The notes beneath the pieces were generated by a model, which worked only from the letters and a program-made list of their open reading frames with translations, searched no databases and was not told where the DNA came from. From positions 90,001 through 122,000 of the forward strand of contig JALHOH010000002.1 of assembly GCA_022843095.1 (NCBI GenBank): a stretch of DNA of 32,000 bases. The letters run 5' to 3'. Every line of letters begins with the position of its first letter. Position 1 is the stretch's first letter. This DNA comes from Candidatus Saccharimonadota bacterium. GTDB taxonomy: Bacteria > Patescibacteriota > Patescibacteriia > 2-12-FULL-60-25. This document shows positions 14,857 through 31,021 of the stretch, piece by piece. A program made the position numbers and the translations under genes.

Positions 14857-14864
14857 AGGGGAGC

Positions 14865-14892: not shown

Positions 14893-14896
14893 GTGA

Positions 14897-16397: not shown

Positions 16398-16406
16398 TGG
16401 TATACT
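16398..16406 (+). promoter_or_regulatory. Extended -10-like element TGgTATACT, 10 nt upstream of ATG 16417
   Basis: TG at 16398-16399 and hexamer TATACT at 16401-16406. There is no SD before the ATG. Confidence 0.35.
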
Positions 16407-16416
16407 TCCATCATCG

Positions 16417-17541
16417 ATGCGGTTATTTTCCTGCACCCGTCGTGTTTGGCGCGTCGTCCCATTGGTTTGGGCGGTTGTTTGTACGTTTTTGATCGGATGG
16501 CGGTTGACCGGTGATTCCTACGCAGCCATGCAAAATTATTTGGTGATCGTTGGGCAAACAAAGCCAAGTGCAGCAACAAACGTTCTGTTTTCGTTTAAGC
16601 CAAATACCACGACAACCGGTGGGATGCAGGTTCGCCTTTCGTTCCATCCGAGTTTTACGCTTCCGGTCGCGGCGGCAACGTCGGATGTTGTGTTTACCAT
16701 CGATTCGGTGACGCAGACCGTGGGGTTGATCCAAACGACGGCGACGCATGGTCTTGCGCGCAGTGGAAACGCGTATGTATTTACCGTGGCTTCCGGGACG
16801 ACGATCGGCGCAGCATCGTCCGTCCGCATGATCGTTGGGCGCGATGGGACGCTGACAAATCCGCCCAGCGTTGGAACATACGGGGTTGGGACGCAAATCA
16901 CGACCATGGGGGGTTCGACGGTAAATAGTCATGCTAGCAATATCGCGATCGTCGACGCCGTGGCATTTTCGGCATTTGTGAGCTCCACTTCGCCGTCGTA
17001 TGTGATCCGCTGGGCGACGCCGGAATTGCGCGTAGGAGCAACGGAGACCAACGATGACGCGCGGTTTTTTGTGACGGCGCGTACGTCGATCGACACGGAT
17101 AACGTCATCCAGTACACGGACGCGCAACTTGCGACGACCAGTAACGACGGGACCTACTACACGACCACCACCATGACGGGATTGTCCTCGGGAACCTATG
17201 ATGTGGGGATCAAGACGCACCAGCATCTCACAAAATTAATCCAGGACGTGACGCTTACCGCCGGGACGACAACGGTGTTGAACTTCACGAATGAGACGAA
17301 TACCTCCACAAAAGGGTCAGAACGGCTGCTCGCCGGAGATATTAGCGGGTTAGGAAACTCTACGACGACGCTTGGGGATGATGTGATCAATGCGGTGGAC
17401 ATCAGTATTCTGGTGAATGATCTGGACGATGATGACCTGACGGGGAATGTGCTGCGACCGAACCTGAATCAAGACGTGGTGGTGAACGCCGTGGATCTGA
17501 GTATTCTCATTAAAAATCTTGACCTCGAAGGGGAACGCTAA
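16417..17541 (+). CDS. Secreted beta-rich protein with a C-terminal dockerin-like double EF-hand module
   Basis: Signal/anchor MRLFSCTRRVWRVVPLVWAVVCTFLIGW...SYA. The N-terminal domain resembles that of the three paralogues downstream. The C-terminus GDISGLG...DDVINAVDISILVNDL / NLNQDVVVNAVDLSILIKNL fits the dockerin Ca-binding repeat pattern (D/N-x-N-x-D-x3-N-x2-D-x3-L). The stop TAA overlaps the next ATG (TAATG). Confidence 0.6.
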   Translation: MRLFSCTRRVWRVVPLVWAVVCTFLIGWRLTGDSYAAMQNYLVIVGQTKPSAATNVLFSFKPNTTTTGGMQVRLSFHPSFTLPVAAATSDVVFTIDSVTQTVGLIQTTATHGLARSGNAYVFTVASGTTIGAASSVRMIVGRDGTLTNPPSVGTYGVGTQITTMGGSTVNSHASNIAIVDAVAFSAFVSSTSPSYVIRWATPELRVGATETNDDARFFVTARTSIDTDNVIQYTDAQLATTSNDGTYYTTTTMTGLSSGTYDVGIKTHQHLTKLIQDVTLTAGTTTVLNFTNETNTSTKGSERLLAGDISGLGNSTTTLGDDVINAVDISILVNDLDDDDLTGNVLRPNLNQDVVVNAVDLSILIKNLDLEGER

Positions 17542-20168
17542 TGCCTATGCGACGCTTTTTTGCCTGGTACGCCGTTTTGCTGGGGATCGTGGCCCCGCTT
17601 GGGTTCGCATCCGCCGGTTCTCCTTCCGGAGCGGATTGGTTTCAGTTGCTCGCGAGCCCGTTTACCGGGGGCGATAACACGGGGGACGGGGGAACGGGTC
17701 TTGCGGCGGACCTGAACTACTACTACGTGGGGCAATCGTTTACGGCGACCATGCAGATCAATGTCGGGACGCCGGCCGGATCGAATGCGGCGAACATTTG
17801 GATCGATTACGCCACGACCACGGTCAGCTCGTCCAATATTGCGACGGGGTCGTTTTTTCCCAACTGGAGCAACCAAAATATTTTGACGGACATCGGTCGC
17901 GTGCGTTCCACGGGGTATCGCACGTCGGGCTATTCGACCGGTCTTGGGACGTTTGGGACGGTGCAGTTTCAGGCGTTGCGTCCAACCGCGGCGAACTATG
18001 GGACTTCCGCGTCGACGACGTTGAATATCAACGAAGGAACAATTGGAGCGACAACGGAAAGCAATATCGCAAACGACGGGACGGATCTGCTGGACGATGA
18101 AGAGGACTTCACGATGTTTATTTGGGCAGATCGACGCAAGCCGTTCGGGGAGGCCAACACCCCACCGAATGCGGCGACGGCGGTTGTGATCGATCAGGAC
18201 TTCTTGTTCCGTCTGTTTGATACGCGTGATGGGGAGGGTGGATCGACCTCGACCGCGCATACGGCGGGTGGGGTGGGTACTGGGGTCAACACGACGCGTC
18301 CGCCGGGGGCGATCACGTTTAACGATGGTGGTGGCGCGGTGAGTTATGTGGGATATGACACCTATTCGTGCAGTGGGACCTGGAGCACGAACATCTGTAA
18401 CGTCACGGTGAATCCGCCAAGCCCGTCGGGGATTTCTGGTGATACGCGCAATTGGAAGTACGCGACGACCTACACCGTCACGGTGAGTGGTTTTCGTGAT
18501 AACGCCTCGTCCTCGCAGGACCAGCTTGGCGATCCGAATGGACCCAACACGATGGACACCAAAATCTGGACCTTCACGACCGAGGCGGACACGGTAAAGC
18601 CACAGGTGACATTTGAATCGCCAACGCGATCTTCTTCGGGAAATGCGACCAATACGAACCTCATCATCGATGTGCAGGATCGAAAAACCTATCCAAGTGG
18701 TCCTTCGGGGTCAGGGGTTGTGACGACGACCTGTTCTTTCAATGTCTCTTCGCCTTCGTTTACGCTTGCTACGTTTACCTCTGCGTCGGCAGAAGTGACG
18801 GCGACGCCCATAGATTACGGCGTACGTTACACCATTAATCCGGCCACGAACTTTGGCCAGAATGAAACGGTCACCGTGTCGGCGTATAACTGCGCGGATG
18901 TCGCCGGGAACGTGATGGTGACGGACACCTGGACCTTTGGAACATCTGACACAAATCCGCCGTTTGTCATCAATCGATTCCCGTCTGAAGATGGAATTGC
19001 CTCGTCTACGACAAATGTGATTTTTACGATCAAAGACCTGGAAACCTCGATCGATCTTGCCAACACCGTCATCTATGTAAACGGGGTGTATTACACAAAC
19101 GCAGGGGGAGCGGGTCAGGTCACCACGAATGGCACGCGGATCACGTTTACGACCAGCTCGAATTTTAATGGAGGAAACTATGGTGGAGACACCACCGCTG
19201 TCTCTGGCGCCGCGAATGAAAAAACGTTTTCACTTGATCCACAAGCGGCATTTGGCGCCGGTGAAGCGGTCGCGGTGCTGATTTACTCCCGGGATGCCTC
19301 CGGAAACCTGATGGAACGCGTGGTGTACGCGTTTGGCGTGGATGGTGCGAGTTGCAGCGGATCCTGTCCGAGCGGCGCTTCATTTTGCGGATCAAATACG
19401 ACGTTCAGCGGGGGGCAATGCGTCGGAACGGGGGGAGGGTCTGGGACGGCGACCGGAGGCGGTGGTGGGGTTGCTCATACCGTGATCGCAATCAATGAAC
19501 CTACCGTGAACGTGGCGCAAATCGACGAACAGTCCGTAGTCGTGACCTGGACTTCGACGGTGCCGGGGTCGGGCCGCGTCGTGTACGATGTTGTATCCCC
19601 AACCAAGATGGAAGGTCCGTATCTGGGCTATCGCTTTAGCACGGCGGAAGAAATTCGAAACGGATTAGTGCACTCGGTCGTGGTGCCACGTCTTGCACCG
19701 GGTCAATTGTATTTTTTCCGTCCGATTACGAAGGCGAACGGGATCGAGGTGTACGGTCCAGAGATCAAGATGGCGCCACGATTTAAAACAGAAGTGCTGC
19801 GAGAAGAGATCATCACGGAAAAAACACGAACGGAAACCATCACAAAAGTGGTGACCACGACGGTTCCGCTTGTGTGCCCTACACCGGCTGCATCCACCCC
19901 TCGACCGGCGCTTTCTCGTCCGACGCGTCCTGCGACTCCCGCAGCGACCGTGCCACGTCCCGTGACTCCGACCGCGCCGCCGTCACTTGTTCCAGGGGCT
20001 GTGCTTCCGGGGGGAGCGGGGGAGAATGTTCCGGTGCCGACGCGTACCGGTGGAACAGAGGCGCCTGCTTCGCGACTCCGCATTGATCGGATCCAGCGGA
20101 ATGGGGATGCATTGCTTATTCGCGGACGTGGTGTGCCGGGCTCGTTAATCCGTCTAGAAGTGTTCTAA
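17541..20168 (+). CDS. Large secreted multidomain surface protein: cohesin-like N-terminal domain, several SbsA/Big_5-type Ig-like domains, Cys/Gly-rich linker, FN3-like domain, Pro-rich stalk
   Basis: - Signal peptide: MPMRRFFAWYAVLLGIVAPLGFASA.
- Cohesin-like segment: VGQSFTATMQINVGTPAGSNAANIWIDYATTTV...GLGTFGTVQFQAL.
- Ig-like domains: repeated DTVKPQV/DTNPPFV openings.
- FN3-like segment: VVVTWTSTVPGSGRVVYD...LAPGQLYFFRPIT.
- Pro-rich run: PTPAASTPRPALSRPTRPATPAATVPRPVTPTAPPS. Confidence 0.65.
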   Translation: MPMRRFFAWYAVLLGIVAPLGFASAGSPSGADWFQLLASPFTGGDNTGDGGTGLAADLNYYYVGQSFTATMQINVGTPAGSNAANIWIDYATTTVSSSNIATGSFFPNWSNQNILTDIGRVRSTGYRTSGYSTGLGTFGTVQFQALRPTAANYGTSASTTLNINEGTIGATTESNIANDGTDLLDDEEDFTMFIWADRRKPFGEANTPPNAATAVVIDQDFLFRLFDTRDGEGGSTSTAHTAGGVGTGVNTTRPPGAITFNDGGGAVSYVGYDTYSCSGTWSTNICNVTVNPPSPSGISGDTRNWKYATTYTVTVSGFRDNASSSQDQLGDPNGPNTMDTKIWTFTTEADTVKPQVTFESPTRSSSGNATNTNLIIDVQDRKTYPSGPSGSGVVTTTCSFNVSSPSFTLATFTSASAEVTATPIDYGVRYTINPATNFGQNETVTVSAYNCADVAGNVMVTDTWTFGTSDTNPPFVINRFPSEDGIASSTTNVIFTIKDLETSIDLANTVIYVNGVYYTNAGGAGQVTTNGTRITFTTSSNFNGGNYGGDTTAVSGAANEKTFSLDPQAAFGAGEAVAVLIYSRDASGNLMERVVYAFGVDGASCSGSCPSGASFCGSNTTFSGGQCVGTGGGSGTATGGGGGVAHTVIAINEPTVNVAQIDEQSVVVTWTSTVPGSGRVVYDVVSPTKMEGPYLGYRFSTAEEIRNGLVHSVVVPRLAPGQLYFFRPITKANGIEVYGPEIKMAPRFKTEVLREEIITEKTRTETITKVVTTTVPLVCPTPAASTPRPALSRPTRPATPAATVPRPVTPTAPPSLVPGAVLPGGAGENVPVPTRTGGTEAPASRLRIDRIQRNGDALLIRGRGVPGSLIRLEVF

Positions 20169-20173
20169 TCGTT

Positions 20174-21223
20174 ATGGCCATGCAAGACCAACTCGTCCCG
20201 ACCACCGGGGGAAATACGCAAGCCCAGACCGATGGTCAGTGGCAATACGTCGTCGATCCAAAAACGCTTCCGCCCGGCTATCACACGGTACAGGCGACGG
20301 ATGATCAGGGCGGAACGTATGAAGCGGGGCTCTATATTGAGCCGGCGCAACCTACCACTGATGCGCCGCCTTTGTTTGTGGTGCAGGAGTCGGTCTCTAT
20401 TGTGGATCGGGTAAAAACGGTGATTCCGGAGGCGGGTGCTTGGGCCGTGCTGGCGTTATTTGTGGTGGTGTTGTGCCTTGCTGCGATCGGTGTGCGTCAG
20501 GTGTGGCGCGCACGACGTCATGCAGCCGTGGAGACCACGACTTCCTATCCGTTGAAGTGGAAATTGGCGTTTGGTGGGATTGCGGGATTGGTCGCGATCG
20601 CCATCGGGATCATCGTGTGGTCGTCACGAACCCCGAATACGTTTACGCCGATGGTGAATCGCGTCCGTTCGACGCTTGGAACGGCGGAAACTGCGCCGCG
20701 TGAGGTTGCTGTTTCTGGACGATTCGTGGATCCGCGAAATCCTGCGCAATCCGTGGTTGGGATCGACCTTGTTTCTGGCGACACGGCCATTCGTACTCAA
20801 GAAGGCGGTCGGTTTCAGTTTGAAGCGGTATCGGAAGAAACGGGGATCCGCCTCACGCATCCATCACTCATGCGCGCGTTCGTGTGGGTTCCAGTCGCGC
20901 GTGTAGAGAATAGCGAAGTCCCATTTGATCCCTCTCTTTTGAATGCGATTGTGACACGTGCTGATGCTGAAGCGCGTGGAGATCAGGCGCGTGTGCAGAC
21001 GTTGTTTGTAGAAGGCGTCCAGGCACCCTCCGCGGTGTTCACGGCCGCTGATACATTGCGTCAGGAAATTGCATTCCATCGTTTATTGCGTGTTGATGCG
21101 GCCACGGATGCGACCGGAAAAGCGCAGTGGGATCAGGTGATTCGGATGGAGCTTGCGCGGCCGAATGCGGCGGCGTCTTGGGATCTTGTCTATGCCTCTG
21201 ATGGCTGGCGGTTTATCCGCTAA
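20174..21223 (+). CDS. Membrane protein (two TM helices) with an Ig-like N-terminal fragment and a carboxypeptidase-regulatory-like beta-sandwich; possibly the detached C-terminal part of the upstream gene
   Basis: There is no signal peptide and no SD. The N-terminus ...TDGQWQYVVDPKTLPPGYHTVQATDDQGGTYEAGLYIE looks like the second half of an Ig-like domain. TM segments are AWAVLALFVVVLCLAAIGV and LAFGGIAGLVAIAIGIIVW. The segment VSGRFVD...GGRFQFEAV resembles the CarboxypepD_reg pattern (weak). Confidence 0.5.
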   Translation: MAMQDQLVPTTGGNTQAQTDGQWQYVVDPKTLPPGYHTVQATDDQGGTYEAGLYIEPAQPTTDAPPLFVVQESVSIVDRVKTVIPEAGAWAVLALFVVVLCLAAIGVRQVWRARRHAAVETTTSYPLKWKLAFGGIAGLVAIAIGIIVWSSRTPNTFTPMVNRVRSTLGTAETAPREVAVSGRFVDPRNPAQSVVGIDLVSGDTAIRTQEGGRFQFEAVSEETGIRLTHPSLMRAFVWVPVARVENSEVPFDPSLLNAIVTRADAEARGDQARVQTLFVEGVQAPSAVFTAADTLRQEIAFHRLLRVDAATDATGKAQWDQVIRMELARPNAAASWDLVYASDGWRFIR

Positions 21224-22121
21224 TCAACGAACCGGAGCGGCGGCGATCATTGCCGCCCTTGTGCTTTGTGTTGTGTTTTTTCTGGCGACGCGCGGAGAAT
21301 CTCCGCACACACCATCCCCGGAGGCGATCGCGGATCAGGGATTTGCGCCGTCTGACCTTCCGTTGGAACAGCGGTGTCGGCCGCCGTCTCGTAAGGATGC
21401 CCGTTGGTGGGAAGATGCTGCCAAGATGGCCGCGTTTTATGGGGGCGTTCCAGAGCCAACCGTGGATTGTGACAACGACGGGGCGATTGGACTTGCGGAT
21501 GTGGGCCTTTTAGCTGCCCGCAGCATTGGCGCGATTGCGAACGCACCCTCGACGGATCCGGAAGGGGAAAAAATTGAAGGGCTTCGTGGAATGGTTGATG
21601 GTGTGCCGCATGTAGATATTTTAGCGCCGCAGCTCACGGGAGGTGTCCAAGTCTATCTGCGTGTTCCAGAGGGAACGTCCATCGCATGGATGACCGAAGA
21701 GGGGAACTGGATTCAACCGCCGCGGGTGCAGAGTGGATTTTTGCATGGTGTTTGGATGCGACGTGGCCGCGAGATGCGTACGCCGCTCGTCCGGATCCGT
21801 TTGCCGGAGACATCGATGGTTGCCTTGCAACCGACACTTGGGATGCAGGGGAGTGGATTGGATGATCCACGGCGAGTCGTGGGTCTTCGGTATCTTGAAC
21901 GCGTAGCGACACTGTCCCCGTTACCCACATCAAGGAAGATCGAAGCGCACATATTCGAGATTGAAACCGTGTTAGGCTCCCAGCGTGTGTGGATCGGGGA
22001 CGCGGGGGGTCGCGCGGTGGATTCCGCGGGATTTCTGGTGGATGGAACGTGGGTACCGGGCACCATTCTTGCGCTCCCGCCTTTGCCGGCACGGTCTGTT
22101 GAATTTCGTCTGACGCCTTAA
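21192..22121 (+). CDS. N-terminally membrane-anchored hypothetical protein with one dockerin/EF-hand-like motif
   Basis: TM segment GAAAIIAALVLCVVFFLA, and motif VDCDNDGAIGLADVGLLAARSI. The start is uncertain (21153 non-ATG, ATG 21192 or ATG 21201). It overlaps the end of the previous gene. Confidence 0.45.
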   Translation: MPLMAGGLSANQRTGAAAIIAALVLCVVFFLATRGESPHTPSPEAIADQGFAPSDLPLEQRCRPPSRKDARWWEDAAKMAAFYGGVPEPTVDCDNDGAIGLADVGLLAARSIGAIANAPSTDPEGEKIEGLRGMVDGVPHVDILAPQLTGGVQVYLRVPEGTSIAWMTEEGNWIQPPRVQSGFLHGVWMRRGREMRTPLVRIRLPETSMVALQPTLGMQGSGLDDPRRVVGLRYLERVATLSPLPTSRKIEAHIFEIETVLGSQRVWIGDAGGRAVDSAGFLVDGTWVPGTILALPPLPARSVEFRLTP

Positions 22122-22142
22122 CGTTTCATTGTTCTGGAGGCA

Positions 22143-22151
22143 TGGTACAAT
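22143..22151 (+). promoter_or_regulatory. Extended -10-like element TGgTACAAT, 9 nt upstream of ATG 22161 (leaderless candidate)
   Basis: TG at 22143-22144 and hexamer TACAAT at 22146-22151. There is no SD. Confidence 0.4.
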
Positions 22152-22160
22152 CCGAGTACC

Positions 22161-22688
22161 ATGCAGGTTGATCGTCAGCACCTCCTCCCGTTTATCGTCG
22201 TCGGTACGGCGCTTGTTGGAATGGGTCAGGGGATGCCTTCTGCGCCTGTTCGTGTGCAGGCAGATGTTCGGCAAGCGCAGCTCGGTGCATCTGAGGCGCG
22301 TATCGATGTCACGAATGATGGGTGGGCGATGACGCTGACGCTTGTGAACACCGGAGCGCTGGAAACCAGCTCAACCGTTGTGAGTATCGCGTTGCCAGAT
22401 GGGTATCGCTACGGTGGTTCCTCACAAGAGGATGGGGTTGTCCGGACGGAAGGGAGGACCTATGGCACGGATGTGTTGTGGAACGTGACAACTGTTCAGC
22501 CTTCGTCGACGATGCGCGCCGTTTTTTATCTTCGTCGTACACCCGGTCAGACCAGGAGAAGTTCGATTGGTATCTCCATCGTGCCCCGATTTGGAAGAAC
22601 GGTGTATGCGCGTGTGACACCACCTGCGCACCCCGCATTTCCTCCAGAATCACGAGCCTCTTGGTGGTCTCGTTGGTTCGGTTGGTAG
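22161..22688 (+). CDS. Small secreted protein with a DUF11/CARDB-like beta-sandwich and a Trp-rich C-terminal tail
   Basis: Signal peptide ...LLPFIVVGTALVGMG...VRVQA. The segment IDVTNDGWAMTLTLVNTGALETSSTVVSIALPDGYRY fits the V-x-N-x-G pattern of CARDB/DUF11-type domains. It ends SRASWWSRWFGW. Confidence 0.5.
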   Translation: MQVDRQHLLPFIVVGTALVGMGQGMPSAPVRVQADVRQAQLGASEARIDVTNDGWAMTLTLVNTGALETSSTVVSIALPDGYRYGGSSQEDGVVRTEGRTYGTDVLWNVTTVQPSSTMRAVFYLRRTPGQTRRSSIGISIVPRFGRTVYARVTPPAHPAFPPESRASWWSRWFGW

Positions 22689-22737
22689 TCGTGTCGATTT
22701 CTTATCCACACAACGTGAAGCACTCACGTTGTTTGTG

Positions 22738-22746
22738 TGTTATACT
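22738..22746 (+). promoter_or_regulatory. Extended -10-like element TGtTATACT upstream of paralogue A
   Basis: TG at 22738-22739 and hexamer TATACT at 22741-22746. The first ATG in frame is at 22791. Confidence 0.3.
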
Positions 22747-22790
22747 CTGGTCATCTAATCCTTATTTTTGCGACATTGCTCCATGAGCAT

Positions 22791-24146
22791 ATGCCAGAGC
22801 TAACGCGTGTGGCGGGGGCAGCAAAGTCCAACCGGTTTACAACCGCATTGTACTTTTTGCTGTTCGCCGCTTTGTTCGTGTTCGGTGCTTGGATGTTCCA
22901 GCGCCCGGTGAACGCCGGTGCGTTGACGAGCGTTCAGATCATTCTTTCGAAGACGGCTCCGTCTTCGACACAGACCAACATTGAATACAGTTTCTACGTC
23001 ACAACGACGATGAACGGTACGGGATGTTCTTCTGCGACGTCGGAAGACTCCTGTTTCCGTCTGCGGCTTTCCTTGCCAGCCACGTCGACAGCGGGTTACG
23101 GCTACCAATCTGCATTCGCTGTGACGTCCACCATCGCGACGTCATCCAACCCAAGCGCATGTGCGGGTGCGAACTCAGATGTGTGTGTGAAAGCGGATGG
23201 GTATAACTTCGATGACTTGGTCGTGACGCAGGTCGTGACCAGCACGCAGTCTTCTGCCGCAACGGCAGATTACCCGGATCGCATTGATGTCTACCTTGGT
23301 TCCACCACGTCGGTGACGACCGGTACGCGCATCCGTGTGTTCTTCTACAATGGTGTCTTTACGACGCCAGGGTTTAAGCCGGGTCATGTGGAAGGGTATG
23401 CGGACATTCATGGGTTGGGTATCACCACCATGCGCTGTCCAAACTTTGACGGATCTCAGTGTCAGGGAACGGAAGCGACCTACGACACCGGTTCCTCCAA
23501 CGTCGCCATTCAAGAAGCCACAACCTTTACCGCCACGGTCAATGAATCCATGACCTTCACGGTGAACGCCGTGGATGCAGGAACATCGATCGGGACGGGT
23601 GCTCCAATCGTGACCAACATTGGTTCCACGACGACCTCCTGCCCGTTTGGCACTCTCTCACCGTTTGTTCCAAAGATCTGCGCCCAGCGCGTGGAATGGA
23701 TCACCTCCGCCGCAGGTGGAGCCGGGGTCTACGTGGTGCAAAACGGGAACATGTCCACCTCGACCTACGATATCGATCAATTCAAGGATGGAACGCGTCT
23801 TACGCCGGGAACCGCAGCAGACTGGACCTCTCCAACGGGCAACCCGGGAGATGAAAACTCATGGGGTCACCTGGGTTACACGGGAACCTCGACGGATGCG
23901 GCAGTCACCGGTGCAGGAAACTTCAGCTCTGGGGAACGGTATGCCGGTATCTTGACCCGCCCAGGGTTGCAGGCAAATCCGGATTTGATCTTCGCCAGCA
24001 ACTCGAACGCGTTGATCGCCTCGACGGCTGCTGCGAACTCGACGGAAGTGCACGCCTACTCGGTCTACAAGATCGAAGTGTCCTCACTGCAGGAATCCGG
24101 AACGTACTCGAATGAAATTCAGTATCAGATTGTGGCAAGCTACTAA
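22791..24146 (+). CDS. Secreted Cys-paired beta-rich surface protein, paralogue A (C-terminal half WxL-domain-like by pattern; family unassigned)
   Basis: Signal anchor ...ALYFLLFAALFVFGAWMFQRPVNA, then GALTSVQIILSKTAPSSTQTN. Eight Cys occur in four close pairs. The C-terminus is ...LQESGTYSNEIQYQIVASY. It is paralogous to 25189..26541 and 26563..27903. Confidence 0.7.
   Translation: MPELTRVAGAAKSNRFTTALYFLLFAALFVFGAWMFQRPVNAGALTSVQIILSKTAPSSTQTNIEYSFYVTTTMNGTGCSSATSEDSCFRLRLSLPATSTAGYGYQSAFAVTSTIATSSNPSACAGANSDVCVKADGYNFDDLVVTQVVTSTQSSAATADYPDRIDVYLGSTTSVTTGTRIRVFFYNGVFTTPGFKPGHVEGYADIHGLGITTMRCPNFDGSQCQGTEATYDTGSSNVAIQEATTFTATVNESMTFTVNAVDAGTSIGTGAPIVTNIGSTTTSCPFGTLSPFVPKICAQRVEWITSAAGGAGVYVVQNGNMSTSTYDIDQFKDGTRLTPGTAADWTSPTGNPGDENSWGHLGYTGTSTDAAVTGAGNFSSGERYAGILTRPGLQANPDLIFASNSNALIASTAAANSTEVHAYSVYKIEVSSLQESGTYSNEIQYQIVASY
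23346..23410 (+). repeat. 65-nt block perfectly identical to 25735-25799 (paralogue A vs B)
   Basis: Compared by eye: tacaatggtgtctttacgacgccagggtttaagccgggtcatgtggaagggtatgcggacattca occurs in both copies. The flanks are diverged. Confidence 0.9.
23481..23686 (+). repeat. 206-nt block matching 25876-26081 with 4 mismatches (includes a 128-nt perfect run 23526-23653 = 25921-26048)
   Basis: Hand alignment of the two paralogues at a constant offset of 2395 nt. The mismatches are at 23503, 23525, 23654 and 23659. Sequence is diverged immediately upstream and downstream of the block. Confidence 0.85.
24045..24146 (+). repeat. 102-nt block perfectly identical to 26440-26541 (3' ends of paralogues A and B including the TAA stop)
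   Basis: Hand alignment shows the copies are identical from gaagtgcacgcc... to ...gcaagctactaa. Sequences diverge directly before the block and directly after the stop codon. Confidence 0.9.
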
Positions 24147-24182
24147 TTCACCTTCAACAATACATCTACTATTCGGAGGAAT

Positions 24183-25127
24183 ATGTACCTGTCACAACGT
24201 CTAAAACATGCGGTCATCGGAGGCGTCGCTTCCACGGTCGCATTTACGGGGCTCGTCGCCGCACCGGCGGCGGCCCTCGCGGCGGAAGGAACAACGATCG
24301 CGCCGCTGAATACCGTCTTAAACCAGGAACCTGGAACGAACACGGCATTCAAAATTCAGGTGATGAATGGAGGATCGACGGCGCAAACCTATACGATGGA
24401 AGTGTATAGCTTCATGCCGACGAACGATGAAGGTGGAGTGGTTCACTTCCCTTCACAGAAGGATGATCTGAGTGGATGGGTGACGGTGAATCCACGTACG
24501 GTCACGGTCGAACCGGGCCGCACGGCGGATGTCACGGCACAGGTCCGCGTCCCGACAACCGCACGTCCTGGTGGTCACTACGCAACAGTGTTCGCCTCAA
24601 CGCGTGGAACGAAGCCGGGAACGTCCGGAATGGCGATCGGGTACGGTGTCGGTTCCAACTTGTTGGTCAATGTGAAGGGGGATGTGGTGGAGAGCGCGCA
24701 GGTGTTGGACTTCTCCATGCCGAACGCACGTGTCGTGCCTGGAGAACCGCTCTACTTCAATGCACGCGTTCGCAACAAGGGGAACACCCACGTCATGCCA
24801 AAGGGCATGGTGGAAATCTTCCGCGGGGACATCAAGATGGATGAAATCAAGTTGAATGAAGGGGCGGGGTACATCTTGCCGGACAGCGCGCGCAAATTCA
24901 TGGCGATGTCCAACAAGACCCTGACTCCGGGGCAATACACGGCAAAATTGACGCTCAGCATCGGCGAAGGAAAGTACTTGCCGGTGGATCCGATCAACTT
25001 CGTGGTGATCGGGGAAACGTCTCTTGCCGCGATCGTGGCAACGATTCTCGGGATCTTCGTCCTGATTCTCCTCGCCGCGCTCATGGTCAACCGAAAGCCA
25101 GCGGAAGCCGGAAACGGTCGCCGCTAA
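24183..25127 (+). CDS. Secreted tandem Ig-like (DUF916/DUF3324-like, CscA-like architecture) protein with C-terminal TM anchor and basic tail
   Basis: - GGAGG at 24175-24179.
- Signal peptide: ...LVAAPAAALA.
- First module: FKIQVMNGGSTAQTYTMEVYSF...GWVTVNPRTVTVEPGRTADVTAQVRVPTTARPGGHY.
- Second module: LYFNARVRNKGNTHVMPKG...LTPGQYTAKLTL.
- C-terminal anchor: AAIVATILGIFVLILLAALMV followed by NRKPAEAGNGRR. Confidence 0.55.
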   Translation: MYLSQRLKHAVIGGVASTVAFTGLVAAPAAALAAEGTTIAPLNTVLNQEPGTNTAFKIQVMNGGSTAQTYTMEVYSFMPTNDEGGVVHFPSQKDDLSGWVTVNPRTVTVEPGRTADVTAQVRVPTTARPGGHYATVFASTRGTKPGTSGMAIGYGVGSNLLVNVKGDVVESAQVLDFSMPNARVVPGEPLYFNARVRNKGNTHVMPKGMVEIFRGDIKMDEIKLNEGAGYILPDSARKFMAMSNKTLTPGQYTAKLTLSIGEGKYLPVDPINFVVIGETSLAAIVATILGIFVLILLAALMVNRKPAEAGNGRR

Positions 25128-25138
25128 TCGGCAAAAAA

Positions 25139-25165
25139 ACACCTCTCAATCGAGAGGTGTTTTTT
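25139..25165 (+). terminator. Rho-independent terminator
   Basis: Stem acacctctc (25139-25147) / gagaggtgt (25152-25160), loop aatc, and T-run 25160-25165. An A-run lies upstream. Confidence 0.7.
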
Positions 25166-25166
25166 A

Positions 25167-25175
25167 TGCTAGAAT
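25167..25175 (+). promoter_or_regulatory. Extended -10-like element TGcTAGAAT, 13 nt upstream of ATG 25189
   Basis: TG at 25167-25168 and hexamer TAGAAT at 25170-25175. It overlaps the track start ATG 25174, which favours ATG 25189 as the true start. Confidence 0.4.
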
Positions 25176-25188
25176 GGGTTCAAGATTT

Positions 25189-26541
25189 ATGATCTCCTTT
25201 GCAAAACAGGTTTCCACGTTCATCTATTTCGCGGTATTCATCGCGCTGTTCATTTGTTTCGCTTGGTTATTCCAGCGTCCGGCGAATGCGGGTGCATTGA
25301 CGAATGTGCAAATCATTCTGTCGAAGACGGCGCCTTCATCGACTCAGACGAATATTGAATACCTGTTCCACGTGACCTCGACGATGGACGCGACCAACTG
25401 TACGGCGACGTCCACGCAATCCTGTTTCCGGTTTCGGTTGAATTTTCCGACGACGTCTACGGCAGGGTATGGATGGGGATCCGCGTTTCGCGTGACCTCG
25501 ACCATTGCGACCTCGACGAATCCGGATGCCTGTTCTGGCGCAAACTCAGACGTGTGTGTGAGTGCGTCAGGGACGGGAGGGATCGTGTTTAATTCCAATG
25601 ATTTGGTGGTGGTTCGAGTGGTGACGAGTACGCAGAACGGCACGGGCGCGACACGGGACTATCCGAACCGCATGGATGTCTACGTTGGATCCGTGACCAG
25701 CGTGACCACTGGAACGCAGATTGCGATTCGTTTTTACAATGGTGTCTTTACGACGCCAGGGTTTAAGCCGGGTCATGTGGAAGGGTATGCGGACATTCAC
25801 GGGCTTACGGTTTCGACTGCAAAATGTCGGCAATTTGATGTGTTTCAGAACGGCTGTTTCTTTGACAATATCGATTACGACACCGGTTCCTCCAACGTTG
25901 CCATTCAAGAAGCCACAACATTTACCGCCACGGTCAATGAATCCATGACCTTCACGGTGAACGCCGTGGATGCAGGAACATCGATCGGGACGGGTGCTCC
26001 AATCGTGACCAACATTGGTTCCACGACGACCTCCTGCCCGTTTGGCACGCTCTCTCCGTTTGTTCCAAAGATCTGCGCCCAACGTGTAGAGTGGGTGACT
26101 TCTGCGGCGGGCGGTGCAGGGGTGTATGTGGTACAGGATGGGAACATGTCCACCTCGACCTACGATATCGATCAATTCAAGGATGGATCGCGTCTTTCTC
26201 CGACCAGCGCGGTGAATTGGGCCTCTCCAACGGGCAACCCGGGAGATGAAAACACCTGGGGTCACCTGGGCTACACGGGGACCTCCACCGATGCGGCGGT
26301 GACCGGCGCGTCACTCTTCGCCTCAGGGGAAAACTACGCGGGGCTCCTGACGCGCCCGGGACTGCAAGCGAACTTGGACACGATTATTACAGGGAACTTG
26401 AACGGTCAGATCGCCTATACCTCAGCGCCTAACGCATCAGAAGTGCACGCCTACTCGGTCTACAAGATCGAAGTGTCCTCACTGCAGGAATCCGGAACGT
26501 ACTCGAATGAAATTCAGTATCAGATTGTGGCAAGCTACTAA
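25189..26541 (+). CDS. Secreted Cys-paired beta-rich surface protein, paralogue B
   Basis: MISFAKQVSTFIYFAVFIALFICFAWLFQRPANA, then GALTNVQIILSKTAPSSTQTN. It has the same four Cys pairs and the same C-terminus as paralogue A, including a 102-nt identical 3' end. Confidence 0.7.
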   Translation: MISFAKQVSTFIYFAVFIALFICFAWLFQRPANAGALTNVQIILSKTAPSSTQTNIEYLFHVTSTMDATNCTATSTQSCFRFRLNFPTTSTAGYGWGSAFRVTSTIATSTNPDACSGANSDVCVSASGTGGIVFNSNDLVVVRVVTSTQNGTGATRDYPNRMDVYVGSVTSVTTGTQIAIRFYNGVFTTPGFKPGHVEGYADIHGLTVSTAKCRQFDVFQNGCFFDNIDYDTGSSNVAIQEATTFTATVNESMTFTVNAVDAGTSIGTGAPIVTNIGSTTTSCPFGTLSPFVPKICAQRVEWVTSAAGGAGVYVVQDGNMSTSTYDIDQFKDGSRLSPTSAVNWASPTGNPGDENTWGHLGYTGTSTDAAVTGASLFASGENYAGLLTRPGLQANLDTIITGNLNGQIAYTSAPNASEVHAYSVYKIEVSSLQESGTYSNEIQYQIVASY

Positions 26542-26562
26542 GCGCAACTTTCTTAATCGTGT

Positions 26563-27903
26563 ATGAAGCATTCCGTATTCGAGCGGTTCACGCAGGCATT
26601 ACTTGCTTGCGTGTTTCTCTTCGTCATTGGTTTTGTTTGGCATTCCGTGACAACGCCTGTGCGTGCAGGAACGCTTTCTAATGTCCAGGCAATTCTGTCG
26701 AAAACATCTCCATCGACCACGCAGACCAACATGCAGTTCATTTTTACGGTGACATCGACCATGTCGAATGCGAACTGCGACTTTAACGCGATTGGTGAAA
26801 CCTGTTTTCGCATTCGATTAGCCATGCCAGTCACAAGTACGGCGGGATATGGATGGGGATCCGCCTTCCAGGTCGCGCCGATGGCAACGTCTACTAACTA
26901 TCAAGATTGTAATGGATCAAACGCGGACGTGTGTGTTCATGCGAGTGGGACGGGGTATCTCATGGGGCACCTCGCCGTTCTTGCAGTCGTCACCTCCTCG
27001 AATCCTGCGAATGGATCGACGGCGGTCTATCCGGATACGCTTGATATCTATATTGGTTCAGGGACAACGGTATATGCGGGAACGCAGATCTACCTCTGGT
27101 TCTATAATGGGAAGTTTACTACCCCGGGATTTAAGCCAGGACACCAAACAGGAGAGATTGATTTTCACGGGATTGGGATCGAAACTTCAAAATGTCGAAA
27201 CTGGAACGGCTCCACCTGCGTGGAAAGTGTGGACTATGACAATGCCGTTGGCGTTGTCACGATCATGGATCCGGTGACGTTTTCCGCGAGCGTTGATGAG
27301 TCCTTGCAGTTCATCGTTCGCTCTGTTGCAACAGGGACGATTATTGGAACGTATGAGCAGTTGAATCCGACGATGGGGTCTGCGACGTCATCCTGTGCAT
27401 TTGGAACGCTTGCGCCGTTTGTTCCGAAAACCTGCGCGCATCGGCTGGAGTGGCTCACTTCGGCACAAGGAGGTGCGGCCGTGTATGTCGTGCAAGATGC
27501 GAACCTACGCGATGGACAGGCGGATATCGATCAATTCAATAATGGACTACGCCTCCATCCCGGAGCTGCTGTTCCTTGGGTGTCGCCCTCTGCGGATCCG
27601 AGCAGTGAATCAACGTGGGGACATTTAGGATATGCAGCAACGTCGACGGATGCGGCGGTCACGTCCTATGGCGCATTTCAAACGGGACCGAATTTTGGAG
27701 GTATTTTAGTGCGTCCGGATTTGCAGACGCGTCCCAGTGATATTTTCCCTGCGCCGAATAAAAACGCATCGATTGCGTACACAACTGGGCCGAATACCTC
27801 CCTTGTACACGCCTATGTAGTGTATCGGGTAGAGATCAGTCCGTTGCAAGAAGCAGGGGACTATCAAAACGAAATTCAGTATCAGATTGTAGCTCAGTAC
27901 TGA
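26563..27903 (+). CDS. Secreted Cys-paired beta-rich surface protein, paralogue C (more diverged)
   Basis: MKHSVFERFTQALLACVFLFVIGFVWHSVTTPVRA, then GTLSNVQAILSKTSPSTTQTN. The Cys pairs are conserved and the C-terminus is ...LQEAGDYQNEIQYQIVAQY. It starts 21 nt after the paralogue B stop. Confidence 0.7.
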   Translation: MKHSVFERFTQALLACVFLFVIGFVWHSVTTPVRAGTLSNVQAILSKTSPSTTQTNMQFIFTVTSTMSNANCDFNAIGETCFRIRLAMPVTSTAGYGWGSAFQVAPMATSTNYQDCNGSNADVCVHASGTGYLMGHLAVLAVVTSSNPANGSTAVYPDTLDIYIGSGTTVYAGTQIYLWFYNGKFTTPGFKPGHQTGEIDFHGIGIETSKCRNWNGSTCVESVDYDNAVGVVTIMDPVTFSASVDESLQFIVRSVATGTIIGTYEQLNPTMGSATSSCAFGTLAPFVPKTCAHRLEWLTSAQGGAAVYVVQDANLRDGQADIDQFNNGLRLHPGAAVPWVSPSADPSSESTWGHLGYAATSTDAAVTSYGAFQTGPNFGGILVRPDLQTRPSDIFPAPNKNASIAYTTGPNTSLVHAYVVYRVEISPLQEAGDYQNEIQYQIVAQY

Positions 27904-27907
27904 GCCA

Positions 27908-27936
27908 AATCCCCTCGGAGATTCCGAGGGGATTTT
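27908..27936 (+). terminator. Rho-independent terminator
   Basis: 11-bp stem aatcccctcgg (27908-27918) / ccgaggggatt (27924-27934), loop agatt, followed by tt. Confidence 0.6.
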
Positions 27937-27937
27937 G

Positions 27938-27946
27938 TGCTATCAT
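27938..27946 (+). promoter_or_regulatory. Extended -10-like element TGcTATCAT, 13 nt upstream of ATG 27960
   Basis: TG at 27938-27939 and hexamer TATCAT at 27941-27946. It overlaps the track start ATG 27945. Confidence 0.35.
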
Positions 27947-27959
27947 GCATAGAGCGCCC

Positions 27960-29402
27960 ATGTTATTTGGCAAACGGCGTTTATTGAAGCGTTTGGAGCG
28001 TGAGCATGCGCACATGCTCAGAGATTTGCATACCTGGATGACGAAGGAGGAAGAGCGTGCGCGTCTAGAGCCGGAACTCAAGCAACATCAGTCGAATATT
28101 ACGGCGTTGTATCGGATGCTCGCGCCGCACGATTCCTTGGATTGGACGGCCTTTTTTATCCGGACGGGGTTGGCGATTTTGATTTTTTTCCTGCTCATCG
28201 CGCCACCGTATACGTTCTACGCGCAGCAGCAGTTTTTGAATCCGATTGTGCCGGTCACCGTCATGGGAAAGGAATATATGCAGGTGACGGCGTTTGTCCC
28301 GGAAACACCCGTTGTCGCGGATGACTGGGCCTCGTTTGAAGAGGCGGATCGTCCAGAGCCGGTTCGTTTGGAGTCGCTTGCGACTCATGAGGGGCGGATC
28401 GTCGGGTTTGTGCAGCAGCCGGATTATCCATATGTGGTGTTGTGGACGGCGCCGGATGCGCAGCGACACACGCTCTTTTTACGGACGTATACCAACATCG
28501 TCGAAAAAATGGGGGTCCAAACGCGTCCGCTGCTGCAAGACGCGGTCTATCAGGGGATCGCGACGATGCGCTGGAACGGAACAGAGTCGGTTTTGGCTTA
28601 CGCGACGGATGAGCGAACCATTCGTTTGCAGCGCTTTGATAAACAATGGAACAAGCTTGGCGAACCGGCTGAGGTCACGCTTGCGTTCAAGGATGAATCC
28701 ATCGATGGGTTTACGGTGAGCTGGGCACGCGACACGTGGATTTTGGGAACCGTGATCGATCCGCCAGGAGGGGGCTCAACGCTGGCGCACCGTGACCCCG
28801 TGTTGCGGCAGTTCGATGCATCATTGCAAAAGAAACAGGAAATGCGACTGACCACGGATAACGTCCATGGAGGAGCGTATCCTCAGGTGGTTGCGGATGA
28901 GGACGCGGCGAATCCAGGAGGATGGTTGGTGTTTCAGCCCACAAGCGATGTCTTGAAGAAAGCACGTGCAGAAATTGGGGATGCGTTGCAAGCCTGGAAA
29001 GTCGATGCGAAAGGTGAGGTTATTGCCCGTCGGCGTCTCACAACCCCGGGGATGCGTCATCACTTCATGACGTCAGACGTGGCTGTGGAAGACATGTATT
29101 ATGTTTTGACGCATCAGCAGCAGGTACCGCCCTGGTATAAGGCAGACACGGGGTATGTGTCGTCTACGGGGCGTGCGATTATTCTTGCGTACGACAAAAC
29201 ATTGCAGCGTGCGACGGGGTTTGTGTGGGTACGAGATGTTCCGCCCGTGACAAACCCGTTGGAGCGACGGGGTGTTTCCCATGCCCGCTTTCTGAAAAAA
29301 GGAAACGTCGTGTTTACCGTCTACGACTATCTCATGGCAGAAGATCCGGAAACGGGAAAGCCGCGTCGAGACATCATGCTGGGCAAGGTCGTCACCGAGT
29401 AG
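27960..29402 (+). CDS. Single-pass membrane protein with a basic/coiled N-terminal cytoplasmic segment and a large beta-rich ectodomain (no family recognised)
   Basis: TM segment FFIRTGLAILIFFLLIAPPYTF comes after a charged helix (LKRLEREHAHMLRDLHTWMTKEEERARLEPELKQ). About 390 aa of ectodomain contain repeated aromatic/Gly beta-strand-like segments. The start is ATG 27960 (or 27945). Confidence 0.5.
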   Translation: MLFGKRRLLKRLEREHAHMLRDLHTWMTKEEERARLEPELKQHQSNITALYRMLAPHDSLDWTAFFIRTGLAILIFFLLIAPPYTFYAQQQFLNPIVPVTVMGKEYMQVTAFVPETPVVADDWASFEEADRPEPVRLESLATHEGRIVGFVQQPDYPYVVLWTAPDAQRHTLFLRTYTNIVEKMGVQTRPLLQDAVYQGIATMRWNGTESVLAYATDERTIRLQRFDKQWNKLGEPAEVTLAFKDESIDGFTVSWARDTWILGTVIDPPGGGSTLAHRDPVLRQFDASLQKKQEMRLTTDNVHGGAYPQVVADEDAANPGGWLVFQPTSDVLKKARAEIGDALQAWKVDAKGEVIARRRLTTPGMRHHFMTSDVAVEDMYYVLTHQQQVPPWYKADTGYVSSTGRAIILAYDKTLQRATGFVWVRDVPPVTNPLERRGVSHARFLKKGNVVFTVYDYLMAEDPETGKPRRDIMLGKVVTE

Positions 29403-29449: not shown

Positions 29450-31021
29450 ATGGACGCATTCTCCGCCGGCAAGGTTGATGCACTCGTGCAGGCGCTTGCG
29501 CCGCAGTCCCTGCCGGATGTTCCCGAGGGGATGCGACTGAATGTCCACACCACTATCAGTAAAGTGGCGGTGTTGTACGAAAAAATTCGGAATGCCATCG
29601 ATTATAAAGATGATCACTTGCTGCGTAAGGCGGCAATTTTGCGTATCATCAAGCGCCAACTCACGTACACCTCTAAATCGGATGAGATCGCGCGAAACTT
29701 GGTGCGCGAGTTAATCGCGGCGCGCTATTTACCAAACAATACCTTGCCAGAATCGGTGGTGCAGGACGTGCAGGGGATTTTGGAAAAATTTTTGATGATG
29801 CGACGGGAACGGGTGGGACGCGAGCGTCATCAGACATGGCTCCTGGGGATCACGGCGGCAGAATTGGAGGAGCTCATGACGGATCATCGTCGTGAAAAAG
29901 GCTTGCTTCAATTCCTATTCGAACAACTTGGCGATAAGATCACGCTTTCTGGTGCAGAGATGGAAGAAACCGAACGTCGATTGCAGGTGTACATCGCCTG
30001 TCATCGCGCGTTGTTTAAGGCGGATGATGAGATGTTGTCGTACAAGCTCGTTCGCGCCTACTACCGGTCTTGGATGCAGCCAGAAACTTGGGGGGCGCAC
30101 CATCGCGAAATGGCGTTGCAGATGGTAGGGATCCACGAAACGATCCTGCGCCAGCTCAAGCATCCCTACGCGCAAAAGTTCAGTACGGCTGTGAAACCCT
30201 GGGCGACCTCATTGCGTGTGCTTGTAGAGGCGCTAGATGAAAAGCCGGAAGATGCACGTGTGCTGCTTGGCAAGCCAGAGTCGCTGCTTGCTGCGGTGAC
30301 GCGCGTTTCGGAACGCAATTATCAAGAGGCGAAGCAAAAATTGAAGCGCGGGATGGTGCGCGCCATGATCTATTTGTTTATCACAAAGACGTTGTTTGCG
30401 ATCGCGATCGAGATGCCATTCGAGCAGATTGTCTATAAGCACATCGACCGGTTCGCGTTGCTGGTAAATATTCTGTTTCCGCCGATTTTAATGTGGATCG
30501 TGGCATCCCTCATCCGCGTTCCGGGAAAAGATAACACCGAACGGATTGCGCAGGGGGTAAACGAACTGCTGACGGCAGAAGGCCCTCTTGGACGCGAAAT
30601 CAAAATCGTTCCAAAGCGTCGTGGATTGTCCGGATTCTTTTTCCAATTCATTTACGCCTTCACGTTCGCCTTATCCTTTGGTTTGGTCATTTGGGGGTTG
30701 TGGGCGCTCAAGTTTACGGCCGTTTCCATGGGGATTTTTCTGTTCTTTTTGTGCGTTGTGAGTTTTTTTGCCTTCCGTTTGCGCGTTTCCGCTCGTGAAT
30801 ATGTGATTGTGGAAAAAACAGCCTCCACCGGCGCCTTGATGGTCGATTTTTTCGCGCTTCCTATTCTACGCGCCGGACAATGGCTTTCGAACTCGATTTC
30901 TCGCATCAACGTGTTTATTTTTATCTTCGATTTTATCATCGAAGCCCCACTCAAATTGTTCCTTAATATCCTGGAAGAATGGTTCGCGTTCATGAAGGAG
31001 CGCAAGGAAGAGCTGCAATAA
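29450..31021 (+). CDS. Polytopic membrane protein with a ~330-aa helical N-terminal soluble domain (no family confidently recognised)
   Basis: 523-aa ORF. The C-terminal third has several hydrophobic helices (MIYLFITKTLFAIAI, LLVNILFPPILMWIVASLI, FFFQFIYAFTFALSFGLVIWGLWAL, AVSMGIFLFFLCVVSFFAF, VFIFIFDFII). TTGACT at 29410-29415 is a possible -35. Confidence 0.55.
   Translation: MDAFSAGKVDALVQALAPQSLPDVPEGMRLNVHTTISKVAVLYEKIRNAIDYKDDHLLRKAAILRIIKRQLTYTSKSDEIARNLVRELIAARYLPNNTLPESVVQDVQGILEKFLMMRRERVGRERHQTWLLGITAAELEELMTDHRREKGLLQFLFEQLGDKITLSGAEMEETERRLQVYIACHRALFKADDEMLSYKLVRAYYRSWMQPETWGAHHREMALQMVGIHETILRQLKHPYAQKFSTAVKPWATSLRVLVEALDEKPEDARVLLGKPESLLAAVTRVSERNYQEAKQKLKRGMVRAMIYLFITKTLFAIAIEMPFEQIVYKHIDRFALLVNILFPPILMWIVASLIRVPGKDNTERIAQGVNELLTAEGPLGREIKIVPKRRGLSGFFFQFIYAFTFALSFGLVIWGLWALKFTAVSMGIFLFFLCVVSFFAFRLRVSAREYVIVEKTASTGALMVDFFALPILRAGQWLSNSISRINVFIFIFDFIIEAPLKLFLNILEEWFAFMKERKEELQ

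Follow-up and report, generated by a model that had tools for sequence, protein, structure and literature searches.

A ten-gene surface-protein cluster in a Patescibacteria genome is probably a divergent Pam-type pilus operon

We analysed a 32,000-nt stretch of DNA (hereafter the window) from an assembly named Candidatus Saccharimonadota bacterium (GCA_022843095.1, contig JALHOH010000002.1, positions 90,001 to 122,000). Within it, ten consecutive, tightly spaced open reading frames (ORFs), G1 to G10, occupy positions 16417-29402 of the + strand (Table 1). The cluster is probably a divergent Pam-type pilus operon in a genome of the Candidate Phyla Radiation (CPR, Patescibacteria), with its closest relatives in metagenome-assembled genomes (MAGs) of Ca. 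Uhrbacteria, and we put the probability of this reading at about 0.75. A system of this kind is already known, from a 2026 preprint and from new NCBIfam models; it is a very recent addition to the literature and restricted in its lineages, and the locus is a divergent variant of it that carries additional parts. An earlier sequence-only reading of the window had seen in these genes a self-contained surface assembly or adhesion locus of secreted and anchored beta-rich proteins that does not fit a classical pilus, S-layer or cellulosome locus, and this description holds. It had also called the proteins orphans and the system uncharacterised, and neither label survived: G6, G8 and G9 turned out to be homologous over their full length to the Pam pilins, and filament structures of these pilins, from cryo-electron microscopy (cryo-EM), are given in that preprint. 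The claim of novelty had been made to depend on the lack of confident profile hits to a described system, and this placement much reduces it. The observation was thus confirmed and its interpretation partly supported.

The Pam pilus was described from cryo-EM of thin filaments of Ca. Mycosynbacter amalyticus (Saccharimonadia), which led to the pilins PamA and PamB; the subunits of the filament are joined by donor-strand exchange, one inserting its linker into the groove of its successor (bioRxiv 10.64898/2026.03.03.709456). According to the same preprint, the pilins contain paired cysteines (two and three pairs) and their conservation is concentrated in the linker and the C-terminal domain. 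PamC and PamD, encoded in the Pam operon, are predicted PapD/FimC-like chaperones, each with a C-terminal transmembrane (TM) helix; PamE is a third pilin, PamT a tip subunit consisting of the C-terminal domain alone, and PamR, which has two FnIII domains, a TM helix and an extra N-terminal strand, is an anchor or terminator (bioRxiv 10.64898/2026.03.03.709456). No usher, ATPase or retraction machinery was identified for the system, and homologues were reported in CPR only, mainly in Saccharimonadia and Microgenomatia (bioRxiv 10.64898/2026.03.03.709456). The preprint makes no mention of WxL, DUF916 or dockerin. Two NCBIfam models were used here, NF058581 (CPR_Pam_pilin_C, 'Pam pilus system pilin subunit', cut-off 55 bits) and a second Pam model, NF058579.

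The evidence comes first of all from G6, G8 and G9. They had been recognised earlier as three paralogous, Cys-paired, beta-rich proteins, and we confirmed this: G6 is 77% and G9 53% identical to G8, and each contains four close Cys pairs. A word-seeded search with G8 found five relatives, and further word-seeded searches gave 9 and 18 matches; no M. amalyticus protein was present among these homologues. When a profile of alignment A1 (G6, G8, G9 and two relatives) was used in an exhaustive search, 768 cluster representatives were matched at E<=1e-3 and 356 at E<=1e-10, which is incompatible with orphan proteins. NF058581 was detected at E<1e-3 in 80 of the 127 members of the pilin family, the best E-value being 5e-13, and a G8 homologue that is 32% identical over 92% of its length (P0005) matched the whole NF058581 profile (33.3 bits, E 4e-8). 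Among the paralogues themselves, the sole informative family match was a weak one of G9, residues 404-446, to the same profile (17.3 bits, E 0.004). In addition, a hidden Markov model (HMM) of the pilin family, built from alignment A2 and 376 positions long, matched G6 over its full length (E 4e-84).

The comparison with Saccharibacteria pilins was the most direct. Alignment A5 comprises 15 of these, at least four of which pass NF058581, and when A1 was compared with A5 using hhalign, a match of 99.1% (E 1.2e-18) was obtained over 315 columns, running colinearly from the start of the mature protein to its last residue, which is aromatic. Similarly, in Saccharimonadales loci that were retrieved through their G7-like gene, independently of the pilins, the genes adjoining that gene scored 182.7, 147.3, 84.5 and 58.3 bits against NF058581, with its cut-off of 55. 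Three of these four passing genes lie immediately upstream of the G7-like gene.

The structure of G8 was predicted by AlphaFold2. With a 5-sequence alignment the model was unusable (pLDDT 46.7), and the rerun with a 127-sequence alignment, which reached a pLDDT of 87.7, was used instead; it consists of a signal helix and two beta-rich domains, the N-terminal one at about 43-244 and the C-terminal one at about 258-455. The nearly invariant columns of the family were found almost wholly in the linker and the C-terminal domain. The N-termini of the pilins are ordinary Sec signals with AxA sites and not prepilin leaders, and their C-termini, which read ...IVASY or ...IVAQY, carry neither an LPXTG motif nor a TM tail. 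G8 had no sequence match to PDB chains, and the A5 and A2 profiles gave noise only, in a library without PamA/PamB entries. Because the A1 and A5 profiles match colinearly, the two-domain model is confident and conservation lies in the linker and C-terminal domain, we conclude that G6, G8 and G9 are, as judged from their sequences, divergent Pam-type pilins, homologous to the known ones over their full length. We infer that they polymerise into a filament.

Some further observations concern the pilin genes. The DNA of G6 and G8 is 92-97% identical in parts that code for the C-terminal domain (23343-23414/25732-25803 and 23481-23780/25876-26175); the two copies stand on either side of the G7 gene, and divergence is greater in the parts coding for the N-terminal domain. 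The pattern suggests that duplication or gene conversion has recently acted on the acceptor domain alone. In one of the Ca. Uhrbacteria loci (L003, 11087-14077) we noticed a 996-aa protein with a DUF7948 domain, a beta-propeller (SBBP repeats) and a C-terminal Pam-pilin module, a candidate adhesin-pilin fusion. A protein of 561-562 aa with a pilin module is present in L003 and in the related locus L004, and neither it nor the 996-aa protein has a counterpart in the window.

Further evidence was provided by G7, the TM segment of which lies at the C-terminus (residues 284-302). In the Pfam scan, fn3_5 was just above its gathering threshold (GA) and WxLIP_PGBD (DUF916), with 21.8 bits, below its GA of 27.3. 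A profile scan of GTDB species genomes found 225 relatives of G7, which again does not agree with orphan proteins, and the best 80 of the 225 were taken for a comparison of loci. Their record titles name Uhrbacteria, Saccharibacteria, WWE3, Gracilibacteria, Peribacteria, Berkelbacteria, Falkowbacteria and Parcubacteria. In 67 of the 80 loci a pilin-family gene adjoins the G7-like gene on the same strand, and it usually ends no more than about 100 nt before the start of the latter. Most of the remaining loci are short contigs or come from lineages known to recode UGA, in which the ORF calls break. Because of the adjoining pilin gene in 67/80 loci, G7 is regarded as a conserved partner of the pilins. 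By its position and architecture (two beta domains and a C-terminal TM helix) it is a candidate counterpart of PamC and PamD, which are known here by their description, and it would act as a chaperone.

Outside the CPR, G7 has relatives in the WxL clusters of Firmicutes, whose WxLIP protein consists of DUF916, DUF3324 and a TM helix; in AlphaFold2 predictions a hairpin of WxLIP completes the beta-sandwich of WxL (PMC10599100). When the G7 family was compared using hhalign with six plasmid-borne Firmicutes WxLIP proteins, a match of 98.7% (E 2.7e-16) spanning both domains was obtained, and the best PDB match of the family was EfmWxLIP1 of E. faecium (9i25, 9i1y; E 3.4e-5). At the level of profiles, the G7 family is therefore homologous to the WxLIP proteins of Firmicutes, a result that goes beyond the preprint; the C-terminal TM helix is also shared, and both kinds of cluster belong to a monoderm-type envelope. 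In the plasmid loci that we fetched, the genes follow the order small WxL - WxLIP - large WxL, which matches the pilin-G7-pilin layout of the window.

This kinship brings in another explanation of the cluster, a display similar to that of WxL clusters, in which G7 would be a permanent anchor that holds G6, G8 and G9 singly by strand complementation, as monomeric adhesins that do not polymerise. WxLIP is indeed the closest relative of G7 that is solved and detectable by profile, the order of genes mirrors that of the WxL clusters (PMC10599100), and a tip pilin is absent from the window. The partners of G7 are, however, Pam pilins and not WxL-domain proteins, which are described as peptidoglycan-bound monomers and not as filaments (PMC10599100). 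The Pfam WxL family was found in 0 of 127 members of the pilin family at E<=0.01, and hhalign of the A2 alignment with WxL domains gave only 5.6%, which is not significant; the best local match covers the last two strands, at equivalent C-terminal positions, which would fit a display of this kind. An identity of the C-terminal domain of the pilins with a WxL domain is not supported. G7 alone also remains below the WxLIP_PGBD threshold. The paralogues, on the other hand, are full-length homologues of proteins that form filaments in cryo-EM and have retained the conserved linker that serves as donor strand in those filaments, and donor-only subunits such as G1, described below, make sense only when a strand passes between subunits. 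We therefore consider the display of monomers unlikely and prefer the pilus.

G7-like genes were also seen in records labelled as other bacteria. In a MAG labelled Acidimicrobiales (L071, a 162-kb contig with 58% GC) there are two G7-like and two pilin-family genes at 9950-14100; a record with a Methylomirabilis label (L010) contains a G7-like gene with adjacent pilin-family genes, and one labelled Pirellulales (L029) a G7-like gene only, its contig being 3.5 kb long. These contigs may have been mis-binned; if not, the system extends beyond CPR, contrary to the preprint. Several other loci are titled 'uncultured Gammaproteobacteria', which look like placeholder labels.

The first three genes, G1 to G3, may encode an anchor for the base of the pilus. 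Residues 17-191 of G1 match positions 20-194 of the 376 of the pilin HMM (E 1.3e-19), with no match to the C-terminal domain, and the C-terminal 123 aa align with positions 6-56 of the 57 of Pfam Dockerin_1 (E 0.021, 15.5 bits, below the GA of 22.9). G1 would accordingly be a 'donor-only' pilin, with the N-terminal domain, without the C-terminal acceptor domain and with a dockerin-like tail. Short proteins resembling G1, with the N-terminal domain only and a dockerin-like end, are present in L007 and L062. Donor-only proteins are also common in other loci, immediately downstream of the chaperone gene; many of them are about 1100-1290 aa long and most of these long ones have two TM-like segments near the C-terminus, and the one that was scanned with Pfam (L013) contains FN3 and CarboxypepD_reg domains. 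In L062 the G1-type gene is followed by that of a 1540-aa protein related to G2 (E 1e-14), with two TM segments and CarboxypepD_reg domains.

G2 has a signal-like segment at residues 6-24. Its residues 62-171 align with positions 11-128 of the 139 of Pfam Cohesin (E 0.002, 18.8 bits, below the GA of 24.1), and the matches to FN3 and Pur_ac_phosph_N were also sub-threshold. It is 62-63% identical to its homologues in L003 and L004. No sequence matches in the PDB were found with the profiles of G2 and G10. The domain names proposed earlier for the cluster thus fared unequally: cohesin for G2, dockerin for G1, FN3 and DUF11 were all recovered below threshold, Dockerin_1 passed its GA only in homologues of G4, and Big_5 was not detected in G2 itself.

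At the junction of G2 and G3 (20100-20340) an immunoglobulin (Ig)-like domain is split, its first strands forming the C-terminus of G2 and the rest the N-terminus of G3. The split has the same position in the window, in L003 (about 3230-3260) and in L004 (about 3100-3160). The stop codon of G2 is at 20166-20168 and the ATG of G3 at 20174, i.e. TAA+5 nt; in L003 and L004 it is TAA+1 nt, and the frames differ. Since the split is shared while the offsets from stop to ATG and the frames are different, the junction is neither a sequencing error nor a conserved site of programmed frameshifting, and both were ruled out. When the sequences of G2 and G3 were artificially fused, they aligned to Pfam Big_6 and Big_13 across the junction (E 0.002-0.04), whereas the N-termini of G3 alone did not. 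These sequence comparisons point to two translationally coupled proteins, the Ig domain being completed in trans.

A different irregularity was seen in the L003 homologue of G2, which switches frame in mid-gene (about 2560-2760), owing to a frameshift, an assembly error or a pseudogene; because of this change the homologue was called at 546 aa only.

G3 is the product for which the sequence-only reading had made an exception, with internal TM segments in place of an N-terminal one, and this proved correct (residues 89-107 and 131-149). The two segments separate an N-terminus of about 85 aa from a C-terminal domain of about 200 aa, which has no Pfam match. The loop between them is positively charged, and by the positive-inside rule the half Ig domain of G3 would lie outside the cell. 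We propose that G3 is the membrane anchor of G2. The loci together suggest a series of anchors for the pilus base, consisting of one long, anchored donor-only protein in many lineages, bipartite in L062 and tripartite (G1, G2 and G3) here. We infer that G1, G2 and G3 form a modular anchor of the pilus base, with predicted contacts between them, which goes beyond what the preprint describes. It is conceivable, if on balance doubtful, that Pam pili and the WxL clusters of Firmicutes are branches of one ancient system with a sandwich-completing anchor of the WxLIP type, and that the G1-G2-G3 anchor is a new device for pili.

The cohesin- and dockerin-like parts also allow a quite different reading, a scaffold similar to a cellulosome or S-layer, where G2 would be the scaffoldin displaying the dockerin proteins G1 and G4 and the three paralogues would be unrelated cargo or lattice proteins. 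G4 itself has no Pfam match, but it aligns to its homologues across their Dockerin_1 segment, and these homologues pass the GA of 22.9 (L004:4075-5148, 29.5 bits; L003:4187-5260, 23.7 bits); to this are added the sub-threshold Cohesin match of G2 and Dockerin_1 match of G1. Against such a scaffold, the Pfam and NCBIfam scans found no enzymes, in particular no glycoside hydrolase, and no carbohydrate-binding module or SLH domain. Moreover, the pilins and G7 are the sole broadly conserved part of the cluster, whereas homologues of G1-G5 were found only in two close relatives, L003 and L004. Because G1 carries the N-terminal domain of a pilin, a cohesin-dockerin contact would more probably assist the pilus than be what the locus mainly serves for. 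We regard the scaffold as very improbable. If the contact of G1 with G2 is real, it would anchor the base of a pilus and organise no enzymes.

A Pam-type pilus could then be built as follows. G6, G8 and G9 would be exported by Sec and their signal peptides cleaved after the AxA-type sites. G7, held in the cytoplasmic membrane by its C-terminal helix, would cap the groove of the C-terminal domain of a new pilin with a strand of its own, until the linker strand of the next pilin displaced it by donor-strand exchange. In this way a thin linear filament would grow at its base without an usher, ATPase or sortase. G1 would end the growth because it has the N-terminal domain of a pilin and no acceptor domain, i.e. 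it could donate a strand without being able to accept one. Its dockerin-like tail might dock on the cohesin-like head of G2, whose Pro-rich stalk would cross the wall, and the last strands of G2 would supply what is missing from the half Ig domain that G3 carries at its external N-terminus, so that the base of the pilus is fixed to the membrane. In this scheme the homologies, domain contents, gene neighbourhoods and hydrophobic segments were computed here, whereas the formation of filaments by strand exchange (PamA/PamB) and strand insertion (WxLIP) were taken from the literature.

The locus was compared with the known systems. With Pam it shares several paralogous Sec-exported two-domain pilins with paired cysteines and a conserved linker and C-terminal domain, the profile homology to Saccharibacteria pilins over the full length, the adjoining protein with two beta domains and a C-terminal TM helix, the CPR host, and the lack of an usher, ATPase, sortase and retraction machinery. 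It differs from Pam in its Uhrbacteria-like lineage, which is outside the Saccharimonadia and Microgenomatia highlighted in the preprint, in having one chaperone-like gene in the window where M. amalyticus has two and also PamR, and in the additional genes G2-G5 and G10; no ATP-synthase genes were found among the flanking ORFs that were scanned, a set without the ORFs at 10.2-13.6 kb and the two downstream ones. The resemblance to chaperone-usher pili (Pap/Fim) is a proposed one and includes incomplete Ig-like subunits, a groove-capping chaperone and donor-strand exchange, as well as acceptor-only subunits at the tip and donor-only subunits that end growth (bioRxiv 10.64898/2026.03.03.709456). 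Unlike in those pili, there is no usher or outer membrane, the candidate chaperone is anchored in the membrane, and each pilin contains an additional N-terminal domain and donates its internal linker as the strand instead of an N-terminal extension. The features of other pili were missing: a sortase gene and an LPXTG sorting signal, as in sortase-dependent pili of Gram-positive bacteria, and a prepilin leader and assembly ATPase, as in type IV pili, were not found.

Several results weigh against the pilus operon. None of the three pilins of the window reaches the curated cut-off of NF058581, and G6 and G8 did not match it at all. The Foldseek matches of the G8 model in a PDB library without the Pam entries 25PZ/25QA were generic two-domain Ig adhesins, the TasA fibre and integrin legs, weak (TM-score of at most 0.25 over the full length) and not diagnostic. 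No filament is known from any Uhrbacteria-like organism. A tip pilin like PamT, with the C-terminal domain only, and a protein of the PamR type are absent from the window (pilin HMM; no NF058579 match), where the donor-only G1 with its dockerin-like tail takes the place of PamR and is possibly its functional substitute. The comparison of the G7 family with the E. coli chaperones FimC, YadV, SfmC, ElfD and YcbF by hhalign was not significant (7.9%, E 0.0044), so a PapD-like nature of G7 is unsupported by sequence, and the chaperone label for G7 draws on the structure predictions of the preprint and on the analogy with WxLIP. Finally, the dockerin score of G1 and the cohesin score of G2 are below the Pfam thresholds, even though they cover most of each profile, and the G1-G2 and G2-G3 contacts are putative.

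Much of bacterial diversity belongs to the CPR, whose members live for the most part attached to other cells, and little is understood of the ways in which they get to their hosts and stay on them. The locus and the 80 related loci indicate a Pam-type module of usher-less pilins with an anchored helper well beyond the two reported classes, in Uhrbacteria, WWE3, Berkelbacteria, Falkowbacteria and Parcubacteria according to record titles; in Gracilibacteria and Peribacteria, again by record titles, there was the helper gene only. Sequence links the helper with WxLIP proteins from Enterococcus, Listeria and lactobacilli, which offers a testable common mechanism to both fields, and the locus yields concrete candidates for the termination of a pilus and its fixation on a cell without an outer membrane. 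For annotation, it is of importance that the present NCBIfam Pam models miss divergent members such as the pilins of the window.

The layout of the cluster agreed with the earlier description: all ten ORFs are on the + strand, and the spacings given for it were exact, namely two overlaps, of TAATG at 17539-17543 and of 32 nt, and gaps of 5, 36 and 21 nt. The conserved co-occurrence in related genomes, proposed as a check, was also found, since homologues of all ten genes occur in their relative order in a Ca. Uhrbacteria MAG (JAIOPK010000006.1, L003/L005) and in the ENA assembly L004, with 25-63% amino-acid identity to the proteins of the window. For this reason the ten ORFs are taken to be real genes. 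In L003 and L004 two additional genes stand between the homologues of G4 and G5. Because G1-G5 are confined to the close relatives, the cluster can be divided into a widely conserved core of pilins and G7 and a lineage-specific accessory set; homologues of G10 were found beside pilin and G7 genes in L003, L004, L006 and L007.

Table 1. The ten genes of the cluster, with positions in the window
Gene	Position	Strand	Description
G1	16417-17541	+	Pam-pilin N-terminal domain, second beta region and dockerin-like tail; signal-peptide-like N-terminus
G2	17541-20168	+	875-aa secreted scaffold protein: cohesin-like N-terminal domain, Ig/FN3-like domains, Cys- and Gly-rich segments, Pro-rich stalk, first Ig strands at the C-terminus
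G3	20174-21223	+	Membrane protein with two TM segments
G4	21192-22121	+	N-terminally anchored; dockerin/EF-hand-type module and C-terminal beta domain
G5	22161-22688	+	Small secreted Ig-like protein, DUF11-like (sub-threshold)
G6	22737-24146	+	Pam-type pilin paralogue: signal peptide, N-terminal beta-sandwich, linker (donor) strand, C-terminal acceptor domain
G7	24183-25127	+	Signal peptide, two Ig-like domains, C-terminal TM helix
G8	25174-26541	+	Pam-type pilin paralogue, reference for alignments; signal 1-39, N-terminal domain about 40-244, linker about 245-264, C-terminal domain about 265-455
G9	26563-27903	+	Pam-type pilin paralogue, most divergent of the three
G10	27945-29402	+	Type II membrane protein with an external domain of about 395 aa

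Each product had been assigned a signal peptide or TM anchor, and in a hydrophobicity scan this was borne out for all with the reservation of G5. Signal-peptide-like N-termini, in which a hydrophobic segment precedes an AxA-type site (RPANA|GALT in G8), are present in G1, G2, G6, G7, G8 and G9, and G4 and G10 are anchored by a TM segment at the N-terminus (residues 14-32 in G4). The hydrophobic stretch of G5 is weaker and under the threshold of the scan, so that it is signal-like by eye only. The true start of G6 is probably the ATG at 22791. Pfam and NCBIfam scans of the ten proteins found no enzyme family and none of an ATPase, sortase, secretin or usher, and the N-termini are ordinary Sec signals and not type IV prepilin leaders, so that the earlier statement on these points was upheld.

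We propose that G4, G5 and G10 are lineage-specific accessory surface proteins, G10 being a conserved accessory gene of the sub-clade. G5 matches DUF11 below the GA (E 0.0025, 18.5 bits), and its homologues were found in L003 and L004 only. It was also tried as a tip pilin like PamT and rejected, as there was no match to the C-terminal domain of pilins. G10 has a cytoplasmic N-terminus and a TM segment at about 68-90, and it had no matches in Pfam, NCBIfam or, by sequence, in the PDB.

Upstream, the cluster is bounded by a terminator-like hairpin at 16182-16204 and by a tRNA-Val gene on the minus strand. In the window, Rfam and tRNA scans found two tRNAs and nothing else, tRNA-Leu(GAG) at 14897-14983 (-) and tRNA-Val(TAC) at 16267-16343 (-), just upstream of the cluster. 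The long ORF alternatives at 14700-15146 (-) and 16348 (a GTG start of G1) overlap or abut the tRNAs and are probably not real genes. A promoter scan of the window gave fewer sites than shuffled controls. Another terminator-like hairpin, at 22710-22732, lies between G5 and G6, at the border of the accessory genes and the core of pilins and chaperone, and through it the two halves of the cluster could be expressed at different levels.

Downstream, 47 nt past G10, the ORF at 29450-31021 (+) encodes a 523-aa multi-TM protein that has no counterpart beside the cluster in L003 and L004. Far upstream there are two neighbouring ORFs, 2603-4003 (-) and 4147-5865 (-), each with a weak match to the di-haem cytochrome c peroxidase/MauG family. 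Genes of this type are unusual for a reduced CPR genome, and both ORFs are situated in the part of the window with the highest GC content (64-68%).

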